From positions 1,536,001 through 1,600,000 of the forward strand of contig CH464491.1 in assembly GCA_000002445.1 (NCBI GenBank): DNA of 64,000 nucleotides, given 5' to 3'. Shown here piece by piece: positions 35,848 to 47,866 of this stretch. The translations under genes and the position numbers were made by a program. Each line of letters starts with the position of its first letter. Position 1 is the stretch's first letter. The notes beneath the pieces were generated by a model. The model was not told where the DNA came from and did not search any database. It was given only the letters and a program-made list of their open reading frames with translations. The DNA comes from Trypanosoma brucei (Eukaryota).

Positions 35848-36757
35848 TGGTTGTAGACGAGCGAGTGTGCGCGTGGAGGCAAGGCTTTACACTAAGGGGT
35901 GCTTGCGGTTTTACTATATGGAACTTTCATGCACATTTGCAATATTTTAAGAAAGGCTGCCAAACAGTTTGGTGGTTCTCTTAGTGTTTTGAGATATATA
36001 TTTTACCCCTTAGGTGTGTTAAAACTACTACATAGAGCAACAGTGTGCGAGGTGACGAAACATAAAGTTCTTTTACTTGTTTTTTTTAATTACGAATGCT
36101 TCTTTTTTTTTTTTTTGAGGGGAAGTGTGAACTACTGCGATGCTGTTCTTTATTAGATGCTGAGCGAAACGAAAGGGTACTGGATATAAGCGAAAAGAAA
36201 ATAATGGGCAGTAGAATAGGGAAAGAGATTGTTGGAAGGGAGCGGGAGACAAGTGGAATGGGGTTTGGTAGAGGGAGTGGTAGATGCATCTGCTTCAGTT
36301 AGAAGCGTTTATGTTGTTTTCCTATATTTTTTATGACCGTTTAAAGCATGCGGACATATATATATATATATAAACCCTTTTCTGTCTTTTCTTTTCCGTT
36401 GTTATTAAGCGTGGGAGCACACAAGGAAACGTGGAACAACACTAAATTTAACCAATTTACGCGTTCTGGGCTGCATTACCTTACCGTCACCTTCACTTCT
36501 TTTCTATTTGTCTATGACGCATTTCTCTTGTTTGTGTGTCTTTCTTTTTCCTTCTACTTGGTCTGCTTTCATGGGGGTTGCCGTAAACCTACTGGAACCC
36601 CCTGACAACGGAAATGTTGTATTGAGGTGCTGGATCGTGCAGTGAAGGGGGGTTGGCTATTGGGTGCTAGAGTTCCCCGCACATAAGTACAATATAATTT
36701 TGTGTGCGCGCAGTTACGCACTTTTTTCGTTTGTACAGCTAAGAGAGACCGTTGACG

Positions 36758-38521
36758 ATGATGACCAGCAGTCCGAGTTCCATTGAAGTGCCCCACTCGT
36801 GGGCGGAGAAGTACAAACCAAAAACCATTGCACAGATGTGTTACCCCGTTACCGCAAATAAGTTGAAGCAATGGATGGAAGAATTTGAAGCCAATAGTTC
36901 CAAAATGAGGGGAGCACTACTCTCGGGACCACCTGGTGTTGGTAAGACGACATCTGTTTATGTTGTGGCTTCCGAGCTCGGGCGTGTTGTTGTTGAATAC
37001 AACGCCAGCGACTTCCGCAGCAGAAAATCACTGCGGGAGAACGTTAGCACCGTAGTTAATAACCGCACTTTCAGCAACACTTCCTCGTCCTACGCTAATA
37101 TTGTGCTGCTGATGGACGAAGTGGATGGGTGCGACATTGGCGGCGTCGGAGAAGTTATTCAAATGATCAAGAATACCAACGTGCCAATCATCTGCACGTG
37201 CAACGACCGGTGGCATCCAAAATTGCGCTCACTGCTGAACCACGTGGAAGACATCCGCGCTGGTCGACCCCCGTGTAACATAGTTGCCAACTACCTTTGT
37301 GATAAGGTACTGGCTCGCGAAGGCATCTCTCTTTCTAAACAGCTTCTGCAGGACATCATACAACGATCGGGAAGCGACATCCGCAGCATGCTCAACAATC
37401 TGCAAATGTGGTGCATCAACCAAACATCACTTCAGCAGAAGAAACTTGCGGAGTGCGCACTGCAGTCAGCAAAAGATGGTGATGTTGGCCTATTTGAAGC
37501 CGCCGAGGTATTTCTTCTGCAGGGGTCGTCGCGTGGTAGGCCCCGTTCCATTGAAGAGCTCCAGTCCACGTTCTACAACTCGGACCTTGTGGACATGTTC
37601 GTGCAGGAAAACTACCTTCACTTCAAACCTGAGGACCGTGATTGGATGGATGCAGTTGCCGAGGCAGCGTCTTCAATTTCACTCTCGGATCTAGCGCAAC
37701 GTATTATGTTCTTTGAGAACAACTGGTCCGTATCCCGGTCCCACGTACTTCTCTCCAGTATTATACCGTGTGCCCTAACTCGTGGTCATTACGAAACTTT
37801 TGTAACAGGGCAGCAGGCCATATTTGATCGACAACGTCCTGTGAAGTTTCCTTCATGGCTTGGTCAAAATTCAGCTGCTGGTAAAAACAAAAGGCTGCTT
37901 CGGTGCTTGACATTTCAGGCGATGGGTCACTCGAAGGGTATTAGCGGTACACAAGAGGATGTTCTGCTTGATTACATACCACGTGCCTGGGAGAGCAGAC
38001 TTACCGACCCATTAGCACAACGGGGGAAGGATGCCATTCCGGAAGTAATTGCTTTCATGGATCAGTACCACATCATGCGTGATGACTGGGAATTTATCCA
38101 GTCTGTTGCACACTTTAAGAAAATGCAGTCGGCGTCTCCAAACCCTGCTGCAGGAGATATTCCAGGAGGTATAAAAGCAGCCTTCACGCGAGAGTTCAAC
38201 AAGACACATCGTTTGGAAAGCTTTGCGAAGGGGGCGCTGCAACGGGTTGCCACCGATGGAATAGGGTTTGGAGAGGGGGAAGAAGACAACGAGGAAGAAG
38301 GAAGTGTTGCGGGAGCCTCACGCCCCACTGCGAAGAAAGCTTCCGCGAAAACTGCCGCGAAGCCGAAGAAGGCGGCGAAAAAGGAAGGTAACGAGAATGC
38401 AAAACCGAAGAAAGCGGCGGCCAAGACGGCGAAACCTGCGGGTAGGCGGGGGAGGAAAGCCACTCTTGTCGACTCTGATTCGGAACCGGAGTTTGAGAGC
38501 TACAGTTCCGATGACTATTAG
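36758..38521 (+). CDS. Replication factor C large subunit-like AAA+ clamp loader (RFC1/Ctf18 family) lacking an N-terminal BRCT domain, with a basic histone-H1-like (KKA/AKK repeat) C-terminal tail.
   Basis: WAEKYKPKTIAQM (RFC box II-like) and the P-loop LLSGPPGVGKTT. ELNASDFRSRKSL, VLLMDEVDGCDIGG and PIICTCNDRWHPKLRSL align with RFC1 (ELNASDTRSK, LIMDEVDGM, PIICMCNDRNHPKIRSL). The C-terminus is AKKASAKTAAKPKKAAKKEGNENAKPKKAAAKTAKPAGRRGRKA. Confidence 0.75.
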   Translation: MMTSSPSSIEVPHSWAEKYKPKTIAQMCYPVTANKLKQWMEEFEANSSKMRGALLSGPPGVGKTTSVYVVASELGRVVVEYNASDFRSRKSLRENVSTVVNNRTFSNTSSSYANIVLLMDEVDGCDIGGVGEVIQMIKNTNVPIICTCNDRWHPKLRSLLNHVEDIRAGRPPCNIVANYLCDKVLAREGISLSKQLLQDIIQRSGSDIRSMLNNLQMWCINQTSLQQKKLAECALQSAKDGDVGLFEAAEVFLLQGSSRGRPRSIEELQSTFYNSDLVDMFVQENYLHFKPEDRDWMDAVAEAASSISLSDLAQRIMFFENNWSVSRSHVLLSSIIPCALTRGHYETFVTGQQAIFDRQRPVKFPSWLGQNSAAGKNKRLLRCLTFQAMGHSKGISGTQEDVLLDYIPRAWESRLTDPLAQRGKDAIPEVIAFMDQYHIMRDDWEFIQSVAHFKKMQSASPNPAAGDIPGGIKAAFTREFNKTHRLESFAKGALQRVATDGIGFGEGEEDNEEEGSVAGASRPTAKKASAKTAAKPKKAAKKEGNENAKPKKAAAKTAKPAGRRGRKATLVDSDSEPEFESYSSDDY

Positions 38522-39324: not shown

Positions 39325-40551
39325 ATGATGACGCAAAACGTGAAACAGGTGCAAGTAGGAAAGCATTCTTTTCCATTGTATTCTCACCCTGCCATCCGTG
39401 AAACTGCCGGAACCGAGGCGTACGTTGAACGCGTTGTTCAAAAACATCAGAACAGCCCACGAGTACGAAACTCCGTTAATTACGTGGCGCGAAAGCTCCG
39501 ACAAATCGGAGCAATGAAAACCCTGAACCCCGAAGAACATCAGGTTGGTGAAGAAACATCGTGCGCGAAGTCCGCGCGCACCGACAGAAAACACAGTTAC
39601 TCACCCTCTCCATTTGAGGGGAGGATACCAGCGGCATTAAAAAGCGCAAAGAGGAACAGCGAAGTTTGTAAAACGCCCATGGGTAAATTACAAGCTCCCT
39701 GCTCTCCAACCGTATGTGGGTACCCGTTACCGTACCCCAGGTCGTTATCGCACAATCTTTTCAATGTCATTCAAGATACGAGGAGAAAGGGGAAAACAAA
39801 CACCGAACAAAGTGAATTGAAGAACGAGGGTGATCCTCTCACCTTGTCGCCCATTGTTCCAAAGGTTGATACTTCACCTGCTACGGAAAGCAAAGGACGT
39901 AGACGTGAGGAAAAACCTCTGGCACATGAGGGACAACTGCTCAAACATAAACTTGATGTGTGGAGAGATCTGTTTCTTGCCTCTGCTGCGCAGCAATTGG
40001 CTGCAAGCGGCCACCCCCGCTCGCGGCGTGACGATGCAGGAAATGTTTTTTATTCTAACATTTCGTGTTATCTTAAGGAGGGATGTATTGTGAAATCAGA
40101 AGACACGGACCTGCGTACTGGGCCGAGGGATCACCTTAGGGTTCAAGGTGCCTATTTGTCACACTTAGCACCCGAGGCGTTTGCCAATTTGCACGTCACG
40201 CTGGACGGTAATACTTTTGTTCTTCGTAATGTACAACGGACATCGCCTACTATAAAGCAAATATCAGAGGAACTGTGCGAGGAAAGGGGAATTAGATTGT
40301 TGCCAACCGCAATGCAAAAGAAGGTGGCGTACCTGGTTTCACAGGTGAGCACCTCGACGAAAGAGAGGGCGGGCACCATCAGTGGCAAAAAAGGGTTGGC
40401 AACCTCCAAATGGAAGCATACAAATTCTCTACAAACATGTAAACATTCTTTGAACATGGAGCTACCGGAAGTAACGTACCGCAGTCGCGTGCTCTCGACC
40501 ATACGTGAGGGTGCATACGGGTCACCGTTTCAAAAAGGCTGCAAGATGTGA
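39325..40551 (+). CDS. Hypothetical protein.
   Basis: 408-aa sense-strand ORF with an ATG start. Basic and Ser-rich. No motif recognised. Lies immediately upstream of MND1. Confidence 0.4.
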   Translation: MMTQNVKQVQVGKHSFPLYSHPAIRETAGTEAYVERVVQKHQNSPRVRNSVNYVARKLRQIGAMKTLNPEEHQVGEETSCAKSARTDRKHSYSPSPFEGRIPAALKSAKRNSEVCKTPMGKLQAPCSPTVCGYPLPYPRSLSHNLFNVIQDTRRKGKTNTEQSELKNEGDPLTLSPIVPKVDTSPATESKGRRREEKPLAHEGQLLKHKLDVWRDLFLASAAQQLAASGHPRSRRDDAGNVFYSNISCYLKEGCIVKSEDTDLRTGPRDHLRVQGAYLSHLAPEAFANLHVTLDGNTFVLRNVQRTSPTIKQISEELCEERGIRLLPTAMQKKVAYLVSQVSTSTKERAGTISGKKGLATSKWKHTNSLQTCKHSLNMELPEVTYRSRVLSTIREGAYGSPFQKGCKM

Positions 40552-40822
40552 ATATCGCTTTATTTTGTTGTTGCGGCGTAATCTAATTGCCCTTTGTGTA
40601 CACAACTGGAAGAAAATGGAACAGTGTATCGCCAAACTTACTCTTTCCTCATTATTTTATTTACATCTATTTCTGCCCAAGTGTGCGGGTACTTCATTTT
40701 CCATCAGAGGGTTGATGCCCCACCAACTGATTTTCCCCTTTATGATTCTGCTTTGATAACTGTACAAGGAGGAGGACGAAATTCAGACACGAAACAAGTG
40801 GTCTCAGCTTCATCGGTTGCTA

Positions 40823-41938
40823 ATGAACAAATCCGCAAAAAAGAAGGGTCTCTCCATGGAAGAAAAGGTGTCGCGTATTGAAACTTGGTTTGTTAACAAT
40901 CCGTCGCCTTACACGTTGAAAGATTTAATTCAAATTCTACCCAAGGCGACGGGCGTGATCCCACAGTCCGTGGAAGAGTGCATGGAAATCCTTGTCTCGG
41001 AAAATCGTGTGCGGCAGAAGAAAGTGGGTGTTCATGTTCTTTTTTGGCGTTTTCCCCAAACTGCTACCCAACGGTTGGCCGGCTCTATGGGAGAGAAAAC
41101 AACAACCACAGAATTAGCCAAATACCTTAGTATGTCAGAAGATGAGCTTCGGACGGAACTTCAAACTTTGAAGAAGACAGAGAAAGATATTCGTCAGCGG
41201 ATAAAAGAGACTCAGGCATCCATTGGGGATGACAACGCTGTTCAAAAGGATGCAGAGCAAATACGAAGTCTTCAGGGTGAAGTCAAGATACTGGAAGAGC
41301 AACTCAATCAACTTGCCCTGTTGGATCCAGCATTCGTTGAAAAACTGAAGGCCGCAACAGTGGTAGCGTGGGAATCTGCCAACCGCTGGACAGACAACAT
41401 GTACTTACTTGAGCAGCATATCTCACGGAAGATGGGGATGAGTGCACGGGAGCTGCGTGCTCAGCTGCAGCTTCCTCTAGAGGTGGAATACATTGAGTAT
41501 GATGAGCTTCTGCCGTCAGCAACGAGTGGGGGTAAATCAGCATGTACATCTTCAGGAAATTCTTGTGCGTCACCTCTAATCTGCACCGTCGATGCCACTC
41601 ACGGGGGAGGCAACAGTCAAGAAGTACCGGCAGCATTCCACATTGAGGAAGGCCACACCCAAAATATCAATGAGGAAGCGGGGGAAGCATTAACTGAAGG
41701 TGGATGTGATGTGAAACCTCATGAAGACGTTGAGAATGAAACCTCTAACACCTTAAGGAAGGAGAGGGATGGAAAGAAGCGTGGCAGGGGGAGACCTCCA
41801 CTGGAGAATGCTAAGAAAGATGACAATATGGTTAATGCTCCCTCAGTTAAAAAGAAAAAGAATGAAAAGGACAGACCACCTGCTGCGAGTAATACTGATG
41901 CACTCACGCCGGCCAGACAACGGCGTTGCCGAAGGTAA
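40823..41938 (+). CDS. MND1: Meiotic nuclear division protein 1 (MND1) homologue with a ~170-aa C-terminal extension that contains an RGRP (AT-hook-like) basic motif. Track start is TTG 40817.
   Basis: The N-terminus MNKSAKKKGLSMEEKVSRIETWF...YTLKDLIQILPKATGVIPQSVEECMEILVSENRVRQKKVGVHVLFWRFP matches the Mnd1 winged-helix consensus (KKKGLS-EEK...F-...LKELEK-PK--GI---SVKEVLQ-LVDD--V---KIG----YWSFPS). Coiled coils follow, then ANRWTDNMYLLEQHISRKMGM (Mnd1: ANRWTDNIF-----------). The C-terminal extension includes KKRGRGRPPLENAKKD...KKKKNEKDRPP. Confidence 0.85.
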   Translation: MNKSAKKKGLSMEEKVSRIETWFVNNPSPYTLKDLIQILPKATGVIPQSVEECMEILVSENRVRQKKVGVHVLFWRFPQTATQRLAGSMGEKTTTTELAKYLSMSEDELRTELQTLKKTEKDIRQRIKETQASIGDDNAVQKDAEQIRSLQGEVKILEEQLNQLALLDPAFVEKLKAATVVAWESANRWTDNMYLLEQHISRKMGMSARELRAQLQLPLEVEYIEYDELLPSATSGGKSACTSSGNSCASPLICTVDATHGGGNSQEVPAAFHIEEGHTQNINEEAGEALTEGGCDVKPHEDVENETSNTLRKERDGKKRGRGRPPLENAKKDDNMVNAPSVKKKKNEKDRPPAASNTDALTPARQRRCRR

Positions 41939-42293
41939 CCAAACTCGTTAGTCCAAGAAATAGCGTGCTGCTTTGAATCCCTTTTCTAACAGAACAAGCA
42001 CAGAATACCTTTCCTTGAACGGCAGACAGACTTAAACAGTCATTGCCGCAATTTTTAAATATATCATATTCGGCTTGCGTTCACAGACTTGTGTTACACA
42101 TTTTATGTTGCTATTATTATTATTTTTTTTTGGAGGGGAAGGGGAGCCCAACTCTTGAAGAAGGGTCGTTCGCATGCAACAAGAAATGTTATCAAAGAGC
42201 ATATTGTTACTTTTCAACGTTTTATTGTAACGAGTAAATACCTCTCCAAATCCTCCACGTTTCTTTTATTTGAGGAGAGCGAGCGTGTCGAAT

Positions 42294-42339
<46 letters not shown>
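42294..42339. repeat. Compound (TC)12(TA)12 microsatellite, intergenic.
   Basis: Direct reading: tctctctctctctctctctctcta tatatatatatatatatatata. Confidence 0.95.
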
Positions 42340-42676
42340 CCTTCTCACTCCTTCCGAACCCGCTGTGTGTTGAAAATATTGTTTAATACTTATTTTCCTT
42401 TAAGCGGACGGTTGGAAGTGTCAGAGCTTTTGGTAAGTTGTTAGAAGATATAGGCAAAGAAAATGATTCCCGGTCCGTATTCTTAACGAACTGATCCTTT
42501 TATTTTTTCTACACGCATTCTGCCAAACTCAAGCACGCAATGCGCCATCGAGGGAAAGACTTGCATATGGGTGTCTTGAAGCACAGTTAGTGCGTGTGGG
42601 TGTGGTTTTGATTCCATTGTTGACCGCATGCCCATTGATTTTGTTGCCCTTTTTTAAATTTTGTAACATTGTTGCT

Positions 42677-42696
42677 TGTGTGTGTGTGTGTGTGTG
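42677..42696. repeat. (TG)10 microsatellite, intergenic.
   Basis: Direct reading: tgtgtgtgtgtgtgtgtgtg. Confidence 0.9.
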
Positions 42697-43137
42697 TTTT
42701 ATTTTCAACTTTATTCATTTATTTAATAGAGCTTTATTTATCTATTTTTTTTTTTCGTTTGTGGAGTTAATGATATAGGTTCTTTACTTACCTCACCACC
42801 ACTCTTCTAATTTAGGCTAAGAGTAAGTGAGAAGCTTTAATGAGAAAATAAATAAATAAATGAGTCTGTAACTCACCTTTTGGTGTGGTCCTTTTGGGGG
42901 ATAATTTTTTTTTCTTAACCCTTGTGTCGACTTTTTTTAAAAAACTTTTCTGTTTCCTACTTTTTCATGATCTGTCTTTTTAACAACATCCGTTCATTAC
43001 ATGGTAATGTTCAAAAACACACACGCACAAAAAAAAAAGAAGAGTGAGAAAGGTAGCGAAGTCGCTATTCAATTGACTGGTCAGGTGGTGGAAGAGAGTG
43101 GCATTTCATCCTTTCACGACTATAGAGGTTTATAGTA

Positions 43138-43770
43138 ATGTCAGGAACAACTTCCATTCGAGAGGCGATAGCGCGGTTTGAAGATGCGGAATACAAACGT
43201 CGCACGATGGAGATGACAGAAGAGGCAAAAGCTGAAGCCCCGCGTGTTGTCGCCTCGGAGGAGGCTCGTGTTTTGCTAATTGGAATGCTACCTCCTATTG
43301 TGAAGATGGACAAGGACATTACGACGCTGGTGAATTGCGAACACCTTGCGCTCTCCACAAATGCCATTGAGAAGATAGGACCTGGGTTGAAAGAGCTCAA
43401 GAAACTAAAGGTTCTGTCACTCGGTCGAAATGCCATCCGAAAGATTGAGCAACTAGACATCCCGCATCTGGAACAACTGTGGCTCTCTTATAACAAAATC
43501 GACAAACTCACTGGACTGGATAAACTAAAGAGCCTTAAGGTGTTATATATGAGTAACAACCTTATCAGCAGTTGGACGGAGATTGACAGGTTGGCTAATC
43601 AATGCCCTGAACTCATTGAAGTACTTTTTAAAAACAACCCCATTCACAATAACGCCCCATCAGAAAAAGAGTACCGCTGTATGATATTGCAGAGGCTTCC
43701 ACGGTTGACGAAGCTCGATGGTGTACCAGTGGATCCGGAAGAGAAGGAAGAGGCGGAGCGCGGCCGGTAA
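43138..43770 (+). CDS. Axonemal outer-arm dynein light chain LC1 (DNAL1), a leucine-rich repeat protein.
   Basis: Collinear with Chlamydomonas and human LC1/DNAL1: IREAIARFED..., MLPPIVKMDKDITTLVNCEHLALSTNAIEKI..LKVLSLGRNAIRKIEQLD...LEQLWLSYNKIDKLTGLDKLKSLKVLYMSNNLISSWTEIDRLA...RLPRLTKLDGVPVD. Confidence 0.9.
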   Translation: MSGTTSIREAIARFEDAEYKRRTMEMTEEAKAEAPRVVASEEARVLLIGMLPPIVKMDKDITTLVNCEHLALSTNAIEKIGPGLKELKKLKVLSLGRNAIRKIEQLDIPHLEQLWLSYNKIDKLTGLDKLKSLKVLYMSNNLISSWTEIDRLANQCPELIEVLFKNNPIHNNAPSEKEYRCMILQRLPRLTKLDGVPVDPEEKEEAERGR

Positions 43771-44659
43771 GAGTGCATGAACGAACACATTCATACATTT
43801 ACATTAAGTTTGCATAGATGTGACTAACACACTGGTGGTGAGAAAGGGAACACAACTGAGTGCTCACATCAGGTAACAAATCTGCCGCTGCGACTCAGTG
43901 CGGTATTTTGGAAGCAGTGTGAAGACGAGACGGTAAAAAGGTGCTGAACTTCAAGTCAGTAAGTCGGCAGCTATCGGTGTGTGTATGTGCTACTCGAAAT
44001 CACTCCACGGGGTTCGTTTTTCTTTTTTTCAGATTCGGTGTTTTAGATGTACGCCTCCAAATGTGTTAAGGAGACAAAGAAATTAAAGAAAAGAGAAGGT
44101 AATGGTGAGAAGGAGGATGTAAGAGAGCCCAGAGAAAATAAAAGAATCTCTCACATATCCTCTGTTTTCTCCTCTTCTTTGTATGTGTTTTGTGTGTTTT
44201 GGTTCCTTCTGCCTTGTATGTGAGTGAAAAAATAACGTGTGGTGATGAATGGTGCAAGGGAAGGAGGAGTTGTGACCTGCTAAGGAACTGTAACTGAATT
44301 ACTTTTACCTATGTGGTGACGTGCGTAAGTAGTAGAAGCAAAGAAAGAGGAAAAGTTGGCATGTTACTGCAGTGGAGGTTTATCTCCTGTTTATGTAAAT
44401 TTGACTCCTACCACTAGGGATATCACTTCCTGACATAGTGGCAAGCTATGAAATGTTATCATTAGATGAATGAATACTTACCACTACTGTTATCATCCCC
44501 TTCACGCTGAATGGATCGTGAGGGAGTGAGATATTCAACACCTTGTGCTCAAAAGAATGCAAAATTTTTTTTTATCAGTTCAATTTAAGAACTTTTTTCC
44601 ACCACGTTTGTTTCCCCTATTGACTGTAGCTGTTTTTCAAGAAAGTGAGTGCGCACCAA

Positions 44660-47600
44660 ATGGATGGCGATGAATTATTCGTTTTAACACCCAGTGACGA
44701 TGGGGACTTAAGCCAAGCAGGAGACGAAGGGAAGGGTGGCCCCGAAGGCAATGAAAACAGAGAGGGCTCATCAACGGCAGCATCCGCTTCCATCACCGAA
44801 TTGGAGTTTCTGTTTTTACGTAAACCTTTAAATGCTCCGCTGGTCAAAGGGTCTATAACCTACGGTAAATTAAACGAAGGTAACGCGCAGAACCAACAAA
44901 GTCCACAAGTTCAGGTTGATGTGAAGAAGGAGGAATCATCGTCGTCAAACGGTGGCGTTTCACTAGGTGTGGGTAGCGATGTACAACGCGTAACAATTGA
45001 GAGTAAAACAGCAAGTACCCTTTTGTCCACGAATGTACAGGCAGAGGCGGCAGTTAATATCAGAATGCTACGTGCGATGACGTCTGCTGATGTACGTAGC
45101 GTTCTGAAACCCTTTTTCCACAAAAACCAAACCTCGATGGAATATTTCGAGAAAGTAACCACTCAGTTGAAGGAAAAAGTGATTGCTGGTAAGATTTTAG
45201 ACGAAAAGGAAAAGGACATGTTAGAACGTTGGCGACTGTTGGTGAATATATCAAACTGGGGTGACGGAAGTCGGAAAGCAGATGATGTCCTCTTTCCACC
45301 CGAACTTGTTCAACCAGCTGAAGCACTTTTGGAACCGGGGTGGAGTAGTAATAAAACGGCAGCAGACGAAACAACAGCTTGTCCACCGCCAACAAACGGT
45401 TGCAAGATATATTTGCGCGCCCATCAACTGAAGGGAATTCGTTTCATGTGGAGTATTCTGGCGGAGGGACCCGTTGGTCAGGTTCCTGCTGTTGGTTGCA
45501 TTCTTGCACACACAATGGGACTTGGGAAGACTTGTCAGGTAATCATTTTCCTTCACCTTTTCCTGGATATGTTGCGGAAAATGGGTGGAAGTTGGTACAA
45601 ATCAAAAAAAAAGCAGAGGAGGATATTAATCGTTGTACCAAAGTCGACACGGGCCGTGTGGATTGAAGAGTTTAACATGTGGTCAAAATTCTTTCCTCGC
45701 GATAAACGTATTGTTCCGTTGTCAGTGGAAGACTGCACAAGAGTAGGACAACGTGTGAGGGCGTTTAATGAATGGAAGACGAATGGTGGTGTTTTACTGG
45801 CGGGATATGAAATGCTGCTAAATGTCGCCAAGTGCATTGGAACCACTAGTCAGGAGGTATGGAACCCTTCAAGCTATGTTGATCTTCTTGTATGTGACGA
45901 AGCTCATCGTCTCAAATCTGAAAATTTACAAATTGCCAACGTGTTACGAAGCTTCAATCCACTTCGCCGGCTCCTGATCACAGGAACACCGCTGCAGAAT
46001 CACCTAAAGGAGTACTGGGCTATGGTGGACATGGCCGTTTGGAAATACTTTAACAAGCAGCGCTTCTCACAGTTCTTTGTCAGTCCAATAGAAGCCGCTG
46101 CAGACCAAAAGGCGAGCTTGGATGAGGTGACAGTTGCACGAATGAAGACTTTTGCACTTTCACGAGAGCTAAGGAATTTTGTTCAATGCGCTGATGGAAC
46201 AGCACTGAGGAAGGAACTGCCACCTTTGCACGAGTATGTTGTCGTTCTTCCGCTTTCTCAGAGTCAAGCAAAACTGTACAACGAATTTCTGCAGTTAGCA
46301 AGGCATAGTGGTGCAAGACATCGTGCCTTCCTGGAGATAGCAATAGCTATTAATAAAATTTGCGCGCATCCACAACTTCTCTATGCAACCGGATTTGCCA
46401 CAGGCGAAGAAGGACAAAGCGAAGCCTTGGGGCTACTGTCGGATGGTGAAGGGGATGATAATTTTATGACTGAATGCCCCGAGGCTGGGCAGGAAAATGT
46501 GGCCCTTCGAAGCAAACGGCGGGGGTTGTGCCAACCCCCTCCAGGGTATGTTCCCATGCCTGAAGAGGGAACCAAACTGTACGTTTCTATTTTAATAATT
46601 AAAGCGGCCGTGTTGCGGGGTGAGCGGTGCCTGTTTTTTAGTATGTCTACTAAATTGTTAGATATCTTTGAGGGCATTATAGCCGAGATGAACGATCGGT
46701 GGTTGAAGGATGGCTCTCTCAGCCGCCCCATTGTTTTCTGCAGATTGGATGGCCGTAAGACAGAGTGGGAACGGTCTGAGGCGCTACGGTCCTTTGCCTC
46801 GTCTACTGGTGCTGACCTTTTCCTTTTGAGTACTAAAGCGGGTGGTATCGGGTTGACCATTACATCCGCAACCCGTGTCATAATAGCGGATGGTAGTTTT
46901 AACCCTGCTGACGACACACAAGCTATTGGACGTGCGTATCGATATGGGCAGACTCAACCGGTTTACGCATACCGCCTTGTTTGCTATCAAACCTTTGAAC
47001 ACCGTATGTTTCAGCAGAAGTTGGCAAAGGAGTGGCTCTTCCGCACGGTTGTGGAAGAAGCCTCGTTGAAACGTGATTCGTTGTCAGGGCTCCGAATACA
47101 ACCCATTTATGAACTTCTAAACAGCAAACAAAATGTGAGAAGTGGGCCCCAACAATTGACCGACGAGCAGCGCCAATCAACAACCTCCATCACCTCTGAG
47201 GATGCCGTACTCGCCGATGTGTCGAAACACATTCTGTACGCTGAGCGACATTCCATGTTTCTACAACGGGATGAAACTACCAACCTCACTGCTGAAGAGC
47301 GATTTTTCCGGGAGGAGTATGAAAAGAACCGCCTGTTTGACACGGATAACATGCCGGATCCGGTGGAGGGAGCTCAATTGCGGGAGGTGTGGAAACAAAA
47401 CTTTCATAAAAGTCAGTTGGAGCCCCAGGCCAAAACGCTGGGTGCTTTGCTAGATAACATAATTAAGTCACGTGCCGAAGCAGACCCACAACTGGCTGAC
47501 CTCCTGAGTAAGATGGGCATTGTAAGGAAAGGAATTGATAATCTTGTGGTTGATGCAAGTGATGAACCAAACAATTCAGAAGTTACGGAGCGGCCGCAAG

Positions 47601-47866
47601 CAAACCAAAGGAATAGTCGCCGCGACGATGAAAATGAGTCGAAGGGTTACTTGCCTGAACCCAAAGCCCCACGCCTGGAGTCGGTTCCCCGCGTCCGGCG
47701 AGGTTTGGGGGGAAACACTTCCGCACAAAGTGTGCTTTCCCATTCTAATGCTGATAGCAGTTGTGTTGGCCCCTTCGAACCGCTTGTCGATCCAAAATTT
47801 TACGGAGAACTGCGACATGGGGGGAGCCCCTATCGACCCATATACGTTGATGACGATACTGTCTAG
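44660..47866 (+). CDS. SNF2-family DNA-dependent ATPase, ATRX/ARIP4/RAD54-like. Track start is GTG 44645.
   Basis: Motif I is ILAHTMGLGKTCQVI, motif II is LLVCDEAHRLKSEN, motif III is LLITGTPLQNHLKEYWAMVDM. The helicase-C region is CRLDGRKTEWERSEALRSF...LFLLSTKAGGIGLTITSATRVIIADGSFNPADDTQAIGRAYRYGQTQPVYAYRLV. Confidence 0.85.
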   Translation: MDGDELFVLTPSDDGDLSQAGDEGKGGPEGNENREGSSTAASASITELEFLFLRKPLNAPLVKGSITYGKLNEGNAQNQQSPQVQVDVKKEESSSSNGGVSLGVGSDVQRVTIESKTASTLLSTNVQAEAAVNIRMLRAMTSADVRSVLKPFFHKNQTSMEYFEKVTTQLKEKVIAGKILDEKEKDMLERWRLLVNISNWGDGSRKADDVLFPPELVQPAEALLEPGWSSNKTAADETTACPPPTNGCKIYLRAHQLKGIRFMWSILAEGPVGQVPAVGCILAHTMGLGKTCQVIIFLHLFLDMLRKMGGSWYKSKKKQRRILIVVPKSTRAVWIEEFNMWSKFFPRDKRIVPLSVEDCTRVGQRVRAFNEWKTNGGVLLAGYEMLLNVAKCIGTTSQEVWNPSSYVDLLVCDEAHRLKSENLQIANVLRSFNPLRRLLITGTPLQNHLKEYWAMVDMAVWKYFNKQRFSQFFVSPIEAAADQKASLDEVTVARMKTFALSRELRNFVQCADGTALRKELPPLHEYVVVLPLSQSQAKLYNEFLQLARHSGARHRAFLEIAIAINKICAHPQLLYATGFATGEEGQSEALGLLSDGEGDDNFMTECPEAGQENVALRSKRRGLCQPPPGYVPMPEEGTKLYVSILIIKAAVLRGERCLFFSMSTKLLDIFEGIIAEMNDRWLKDGSLSRPIVFCRLDGRKTEWERSEALRSFASSTGADLFLLSTKAGGIGLTITSATRVIIADGSFNPADDTQAIGRAYRYGQTQPVYAYRLVCYQTFEHRMFQQKLAKEWLFRTVVEEASLKRDSLSGLRIQPIYELLNSKQNVRSGPQQLTDEQRQSTTSITSEDAVLADVSKHILYAERHSMFLQRDETTNLTAEERFFREEYEKNRLFDTDNMPDPVEGAQLREVWKQNFHKSQLEPQAKTLGALLDNIIKSRAEADPQLADLLSKMGIVRKGIDNLVVDASDEPNNSEVTERPQANQRNSRRDDENESKGYLPEPKAPRLESVPRVRRGLGGNTSAQSVLSHSNADSSCVGPFEPLVDPKFYGELRHGGSPYRPIYVDDDTV

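Follow-up and report, generated by a model that had tools for sequence, protein, structure and literature searches.

What has been added to the meiotic protein Mnd1 in Trypanosoma brucei, and to what use is the addition put? Mnd1 is the partner of Hop2, and the Hop2-Mnd1 complex stimulates strand invasion by Dmc1 and Rad51 in meiosis; human MND1 and yeast Mnd1 are about 205–220 residues long. A stretch of 64,000 nucleotides of the T. brucei genome (contig CH464491.1 of assembly GCA_000002445.1, positions 1,536,001 to 1,600,000 of the forward strand; hereafter the window, in whose numbering all positions are given) contains a complete MND1 coding sequence of 371 codons and a TAA stop on the + strand (40823..41938). 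Its product carries a long C-terminal tail that is found in all trypanosomatid orthologues sampled, is predicted to be disordered and retains short clusters of basic residues of the type KRxR near its end. These conserved basic clusters have, in our judgment, a somewhat better than even chance of being a classical monopartite nuclear localization signal (NLS) that would bring Mnd1 into the nucleus. The gene itself is already known; a literature search found no paper that describes a C-terminal extension of kinetoplastid Mnd1 or the conserved KRxR patches of the trypanosomatid-wide tail.

A Complete and Canonical Mnd1 Core

Where does the canonical part of the protein end? The locus is the annotated MND1 gene of T. 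brucei, Tb11.02.3380, which is identical to Tb927.11.5670. A fusion with yellow fluorescent protein (YFP), YFP::MND1, is confined to the nucleus in the meiotic stage, and YFP-tagged MND1 was among the three reporter genes that defined this stage in tsetse salivary glands (PMC3928991, PMC5015846). The closest database protein is the 371-residue MND1 of T. b. gambiense DAL972 with 99% identity. The N-terminal domain, a winged helix of the Mnd1 HTH family predicted to bind double-stranded DNA (residues 19–78; 40877..41056, + strand), matches PF03962 over the full profile from position 1 to 60 with 66.9 bits, the cutoff being 23.5 (E 1.9e-18), the match that a first-pass annotation of the window had anticipated when it proposed an MND1 homologue here. 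In an AlphaFold2 model for which 19 homologues were used, this domain has an H-H-H-E-E topology at a predicted local distance difference test score (pLDDT) of about 90, and Foldseek matches it to the winged helix of Hop2 in 2mh2 and to 4y66_C. The winged helix is followed by the leucine-zipper/coiled-coil region LZ1-LZ2 (residues ~95–171; 41105..41335, + strand), delimited by the modeled helices and the alignment to 4y66_A, with long helices at residues 106–134 and 137–167. The core closes with LZ3wCH, that is LZ3 and the capping helix (residues 172–224; 41336..41494, + strand), which matches PF18517 with 47.6 bits (E 1.7e-12; cutoff 26.1) and in which A182, A186, R188, W189 and N192 are invariant in the orthologue alignment.

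Moreover, the only significant match to a solved structure in a phmmer search is Giardia Mnd1, 4y66_A (E 4e-12, query residues 7–225), and query residue 225 pairs with the last residue (203) of the crystallized Giardia chain. The AlphaFold2 model is confident for residues 4–231, comprising the winged helix, the long helices and a short capping helix, and its best structural match is 4y66_C (Foldseek, E 6.8e-8). Residues 1 to about 226 constitute a complete canonical Mnd1 with winged helix, three leucine zippers and capping helix. All features of Mnd1 membership that can be computed are present, namely PF03962, PF18517 and similarity to a solved Mnd1 over the whole core, and together with the published gene they bear out the proposed homology. 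The first-pass annotation had let the core end near residue 205; the core is indeed there, but its end lies at about 226–231, and the extension thus measures about 140–145 residues.

Like the canonical proteins of Giardia (4Y66), human and yeast, T. brucei Mnd1 has the usual domain order and length over residues 1–226, the N-terminal KKKGLSxEEK and the ANRWTDN motif, and in meiotic cells it is a nuclear protein. Unlike them, it has about 145 extra C-terminal residues predicted to be disordered and lacks the EKRxR of helix 1. Heterodimer formation with Hop2 and stimulation of Dmc1/Rad51 are putative for the T. brucei protein, its meiosis-stage nuclear expression being documented (PMC3928991, PMC5015846). 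For Giardia Hop2-Mnd1 it was found that LZ3wCH suffices for binding to the Dmc1 filament and resembles Swi5-Sfr1C structurally (PMC4402518).

A C-terminal Extension Common to Trypanosomatids

Is the extension real, and who has it? The extension, trypanosomatid-specific by orthologue comparison, comprises residues 232–371 (41516..41935, + strand). Comparison of the coding sequence with an independent assembly of T. b. gambiense chromosome 11 (FN554974.1) revealed eight substitutions, five of them synonymous, no insertion or deletion, and the same frame and stop. A frameshift, fusion or assembly artifact, against which the first-pass annotation had advised a check, is excluded by this comparison and by long open reading frames in more than 12 species and assemblies. 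Within the genus Trypanosoma, Mnd1 has 374 residues in T. congolense, 361 in T. vivax, T. melophagium and T. theileri, 358 in T. cruzi, 349 in T. grayi and 339 in T. conorhini. The protein has 401 residues in Leptomonas pyrrhocoris, 429 in Leishmania (Viannia) species, and 448 and 469 in two species of Phytomonas sp. Across all trypanosomatid orthologues sampled (339–469 residues in total) the tail is about 100–240 residues long, the extremes being 96 and 241. In contrast, the proteins of Bodo saltans (226 residues) and Trypanoplasma borreli (208 residues) end just past the capping helix.

How unusual is such a tail among Mnd1 proteins at large? A profile search of 1.84 billion representative proteins was made, and the best 150 were re-scored with a hidden Markov model (HMM) of the core only, which left 139 with a full core. 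Of these 139 representatives among the best 150, 107 end within 10 residues of the end of the core and the typical length is about 203–210 residues, so that the description of the 371-residue T. brucei protein as nearly twice the canonical length is accurate. Tails of more than 100 residues occur in 22 of the 139, and 21 of these 22 are trypanosomatid-type sequences; the remaining one is a protein of 1504 residues whose Mnd1 core is flanked on either side by long additional sequence. The first-pass annotation had named two observations that would speak against it, an orthologue stop near residue 210 and the lack of a Mnd1 match in Pfam; the trypanosomatid orthologues all run far beyond residue 210, and the family is matched as given above. 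The comparison shows the tail to be a clean synapomorphy which, judged from the sequences sampled, dates from the trypanosomatid common ancestor, later than the divergence from bodonids, and was kept open in every lineage sampled.

Several sequences deserve mention beside this distribution. A kinetoplastid-like Mnd1 from an ENA/JGI metagenome (P0015, 245 residues) has a tail of 24 residues that is first acidic and then ends in RKRSAPR, which could be a miniature or an ancestral form of the acidic-then-basic tail described below. Low-complexity Mnd1 tails with NLS-like patches are not unique to trypanosomatids, as Paratrimastix pyriformis (P0087/P0173, 395–396 residues) likewise has the core followed by a long low-complexity tail with a basic SPRKRPAKKRH patch. 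Unlike the T. brucei tail, this one is rich in proline and alanine and contains poly-Asp runs; it is unrelated and evidently was gained independently in a distant lineage. For the Leishmania protein, InterPro was reported to find no LZ3wCH (2023, PMC10630298). The core-only HMM aligns the Leishmania (Viannia) Mnd1 P0055 (429 residues) through the end of LZ3wCH, with the core ending at about residue 293 and containing internal insertions, and the domain is probably present in Leishmania MND1 in a diverged form.

Basic Clusters Retained in a Diverging Tail

What is conserved within the tail? Residues 232–371 have a pLDDT below 50 and no secondary structure in the AlphaFold2 model, and are predicted to be intrinsically disordered. 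No Pfam family was found in the tail alone or in a 30-residue segment around its RGRP motif, even at E<=10. Orthologue tails are only 12–26% identical to that of T. brucei, as compared to 37–67% in the core. What persists is a polarity of charge and a few short motifs. In T. brucei an acidic segment with a net charge of -8 (residues 273–302; 41639..41728, + strand) precedes the basic part, and the charge profiles of most orthologue tails are likewise acidic in the proximal and basic in the distal part. The region had been called acidic and serine-rich, of which the acidic character stands, whereas enrichment in serine is confined to residues 231–250.

The basic part of the T. brucei tail begins with the patch KKRGRGRPP (residues 318–326; 41774..41800, + strand), identified by motif scan and orthologue comparison, in which KRxR occupies residues 319–322 and RGRP residues 322–325. 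It is followed by a second basic run, KKKK (residues 343–346; 41849..41860, + strand), which matches K[KR]x[KR], and by the C-terminal cluster ARQRRCRR (residues 364–371; 41912..41935, + strand). The tail letters quoted by the first-pass annotation are all present, and the protein ends in RQRRCRR. Equivalents of the terminal cluster in the orthologues read RRGRKKK, KKRHKK, RKKRRRR, TRKRAR and KKRKRRY. In Trypanosoma the motif takes the form G/S-K-R-[GQT]-R, 43–53 residues from the C-terminus, and is followed by a terminal basic cluster, whereas in Leishmania, Leptomonas and several other Leishmaniinae-type sequences KRAR, KRKR or KRRR is found 4–10 residues from the end. In the Mnd1 proteins of T. 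cruzi, T. vivax, Leishmania braziliensis, Leptomonas pyrrhocoris and Phytomonas, too, a disordered-looking tail of about 100–240 residues carries its basic clusters toward the C-terminus, and the gene occupies the same syntenic position; the T. brucei protein differs from them in the RGRP core, found elsewhere only in the Logan sequence P0047, and in its extra KKKK run.

Is this retention more than a consequence of composition? KRxR is present in 17 of 21 distinct tails as compared to an expected 0.94, an approximately 18-fold excess that none of 2000 composition-preserving shuffles reached, although the test treats the tails as independent and shared ancestry among the Trypanosoma sequences inflates the excess. 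The core is free of KRxR in all 21 trypanosomatid-type sequences whose tails exceed 100 residues. KRxR has persisted while the surrounding tail sequence diverged almost past alignment. By this comparison of sequences, the basic motif of the tail is under selection.

A Proposed Nuclear Localization Signal in the Tail

How could such clusters serve Mnd1? In T. brucei, 52% of the nuclear proteome contains the motif KRxR as compared to 17.7% of all proteins, and KRxR was proposed to be the version of the classical monopartite NLS used by kinetoplastids (Goos et al., PMC5519215). KRGR at residues 319–322 and KKKK at residues 343–346 fit the classical consensus K-K/R-x-K/R, both fall in the segment with a pLDDT below 50, which is disordered and exposed, and Mnd1 itself is found in the nucleus. 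Unlike a validated signal such as RGHKRSRE of the T. brucei La protein (PMC5519215), the Mnd1 motif is short, common and predicted by sequence only. In the mechanism that we propose, one or two KRxR or K[KR]x[KR] clusters near the C-terminus would act as classical monopartite NLS and would carry Mnd1, and with Mnd1 the elongated heterodimer of Hop2 and Mnd1, into the nucleus of the epimastigote-like cell in meiosis, the compartment in which YFP::MND1 is indeed observed. In T. brucei the first cluster reads KRGRGRP and may in addition lend weak minor-groove or non-specific DNA affinity to the Dmc1-binding end of the rod; this AT-hook-like core would be an elaboration at the level of the species and not the conserved reason for the tail.

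Several points weigh against an NLS. KRxR is a statistical predictor, short and common enough to occur in the fraction of all T. brucei proteins given above (PMC5519215), and its excess in the tails is inflated by common descent as already stated. The strict motif is absent from 4 of the 21 tails, those of T. congolense, both Phytomonas species and the sequence P0013; T. congolense keeps KRVK/KKGR, whereas from P0013 and the two Phytomonas tails the looser K[KR]x[KR] is missing as well, and their basic runs are of other kinds only. Moreover, bodonid Mnd1 has neither a tail nor a KRxR in the core, which makes a tail-borne signal not obviously required, and Hop2 could be an alternative route of import for Mnd1. 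Furthermore, an NLS does not explain some 100 acidic or neutral disordered residues, and nuclear location is known for full-length YFP::MND1, the role of the tail in import being a prediction.

It could be imagined that tailed Mnd1 proteins lost an NLS in the core that the tail-less ones kept, as EKRxR is found in helix 1 of 44 of the 107 tail-less proteins and is absent from T. brucei MND1. Such complementarity is only partly true and was rejected, as tail-less bodonid-like Mnd1 proteins also lack the core motif.

Alternative Roles of the Tail

Does the tail add a DNA-binding module, as the first-pass annotation proposed on account of RGRP? As an account of the tail an added AT-hook is unlikely, even though the resemblance in T. 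brucei is close. RGRP is the accepted core of the AT-hook (PMC5028900, PMC11526092), and KRGRGRP at residues 319–325 corresponds to seven of the nine residues of the crystallized peptide of HMGA1a AT-hook 1, KRGRGRPRK, a peptide that on its own binds AT-rich DNA in its minor groove with a dissociation constant of about 1.5–6 µM via K1, R2, G3 and R4 (PMC11526092). These seven consecutive identical residues stand, as in HMGA1, in a disordered basic context. AT-hook proteins are known in trypanosomatids (LamAT-Y, NLP and KKT2), RGRP occurs in 2 of the 21 tails where shuffles predict 0.08, and the tail leaves the protein beside LZ3wCH, the end that binds the Dmc1 filament (PMC4402518), where contact with DNA could matter.

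The likeness does not extend beyond these residues. Unlike HMGA1, the T. brucei protein has a single copy of the hook, continues with P-L-E-N in place of R-K after the core, has no conservation among orthologues and no profile match; moreover, in HMGA three hooks are followed by an acidic tail, whereas in T. brucei Mnd1 the acidic region precedes the basic patch. Basic flanks are found on one side only, KKRG on the N-terminal side as opposed to P-L-E-N-A between the core and the next KK, the consensus being TPKRPRGRPKK (PMC11354804). Binding by imperfect single hooks such as those of MeCP2 took about 25-fold more protein than binding by the HMG-I hook (PMC5028900). PF02178 (AT_hook) was not matched by the whole protein at E<=1 nor by the tail or the 30-residue segment at E<=10, a weak negative given that HMMER filters may drop very short motifs.

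Among the 21 tails RGRP is restricted to T. brucei and P0047 (RKRGRPSRR); T. vivax has KRGRGRE, T. cruzi KRGRDD, T. conorhini KRGRGD, T. grayi KRTR and T. theileri KRQR in its place, and it is also missing from T. congolense, Leishmania, Leptomonas and Phytomonas. Proline follows RGR in 2 of 12 occurrences as compared to a proline background of 8%, which is about chance, and since KRGR is conserved an occasional RGRP is to be expected. Because RGRP is not conserved, an AT-hook cannot explain why the tail was retained in all trypanosomatids. The hook-like core is, on this comparison, a species-level variation on a conserved basic patch and not the reason why the tail exists. What had been taken for an AT-hook-like tail thus stands as a match of letters to HMGA1 hook 1 and fails in conservation, C-terminal basic flank and profile match, and the extra DNA-binding module gives way to a conserved part, KR[GQT]R with a terminal basic cluster, that has the pattern of an NLS. 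T. brucei Mnd1 may gain some extra AT-biased or non-specific DNA affinity from the hook-like core; it is not to be filed as an AT-hook protein, although in vitro the peptide may act as an AT-hook would.

Alternatively, the tail might act as a disordered tether, comparable to the disordered region of Sfr1 in Swi5-Sfr1. The basic patches would bind single- or double-stranded DNA or Dmc1/Rad51 non-specifically and anchor Hop2-Mnd1 on the presynaptic filament, and the acidic part would regulate this binding, for example by autoinhibiting the winged helices. Such a role would fit the position of the tail directly after LZ3wCH, which suffices for Dmc1 filament binding and is similar to Swi5-Sfr1C (PMC4402518), the conserved acidic-then-basic polarity, and a length far beyond what an NLS needs. 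Nevertheless, the proposal is one of analogy alone, the tail has no sequence similarity to Sfr1 or to any other family, and an identity of 12–26% speaks against a specific interface for protein binding beyond the basic patches, so that we consider a tether distinctly unlikely. A more far-reaching version, which appears quite improbable, would make the tail a lineage-specific regulatory and tethering region beside LZ3wCH, with the basic patches, including a true AT-hook in T. brucei, as a second contact to DNA or chromatin and the acidic segment gating the winged-helix end. If this were true, Hop2-Mnd1 would link two DNA molecules to each other or be anchored to the presynaptic filament, in the manner in which the disordered portion of Sfr1 serves Swi5-Sfr1, and meiotic strand invasion would have undergone a kinetoplastid-specific rewiring.

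Finally, it is very improbable that the tail is the neutral product of an ancestral loss of the stop codon or an assembly artifact, for which its very low identity, its variable length (96 to 241 residues) and the substitutions relative to T. b. gambiense could be quoted (two non-synonymous and one synonymous in the tail versus one and four in the core, counts too small to be weighed and too few for a dN/dS ratio), as the artifact is excluded by the identical frame and stop in the independent assembly and the long reading frames elsewhere, the next gene begins 1.2 kb downstream of MND1, and 100–240 open codons in all trypanosomatid lineages, a conserved polarity and the 18-fold excess of KRxR make pure neutrality unlikely.

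Start Codon and Gene Neighborhood

The reading frame of MND1 opens with the ATG at 40823 and closes with the TAA at 41936–41938. In-frame stops are found upstream, TGA at 40754 and TAA at 40757, and 40823 is the next in-frame ATG; the N-terminus that it yields, MNKSAKKKGLSMEEK, is common to all orthologues aligned. The first-pass annotation had preferred this ATG to an upstream TTG, correctly so given the conserved N-terminus and the upstream stops. The TTG at 40817 is a product of an open reading frame lister working with the bacterial code and is ruled out on the same grounds for a eukaryotic gene.

An upstream open reading frame of 13 codons (40715..40756, + strand), conserved in T. b. gambiense, lies in the frame of MND1 and ends with the TGA that is followed by the TAA, which makes 40823 the first usable in-frame ATG. 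Further upstream, a pyrimidine-rich tract at about 40640–40678 on the + strand is followed by an AG. This AG is a candidate trans-splice acceptor, and the short reading frame could then be situated in the 5' untranslated region. Translational control of MND1 is conceivable because its mRNA is reported to move onto polysomes after heat shock (PMC5015846).

All genes around MND1 are encoded on the same strand, in the order of an RFC1-like AAA+ protein (36752–38521, +), a reading frame of 408 residues without a Pfam family (39325–40551, +), MND1, a leucine-rich repeat protein of 210 residues (43138–43770, +) and a SNF2-family helicase (44645–47866, +). The arrangement adjoining MND1, with the reading frame without a Pfam family on the 5' side, the leucine-rich repeat protein on the 3' side and the RFC1-like gene where contigs reach, recurs in T. 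b. gambiense and T. congolense and in further trypanosomatid contigs; the loci compared for synteny end before the SNF2 helicase. An exact-sequence look-up of the window's Mnd1 protein in public assemblies gave no record, and the loci of T. b. gambiense and T. congolense took its place. Low-complexity sequence is typical of trypanosome intergenic regions. The intergenic sequence 3' of MND1 contains, at about 42270–42780, simple dinucleotide-type repeats that appear as IYIYIY and CVCVCV in the translations of spurious reading frames.

Implications for Trypanosomatid Mnd1

What does the tail mean for the biology of these parasites? The core, including LZ3wCH, is fully canonical, and the likeness to an AT-hook is not to be generalized beyond T. 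brucei. Since the tail carries NLS-type patches, C-terminal tags or truncations of trypanosomatid MND1 could mislocalize the protein. The tail opens no long-standing question; it provides a small, testable detail on nuclear targeting, and possibly on DNA contact, in a divergent meiotic machinery.

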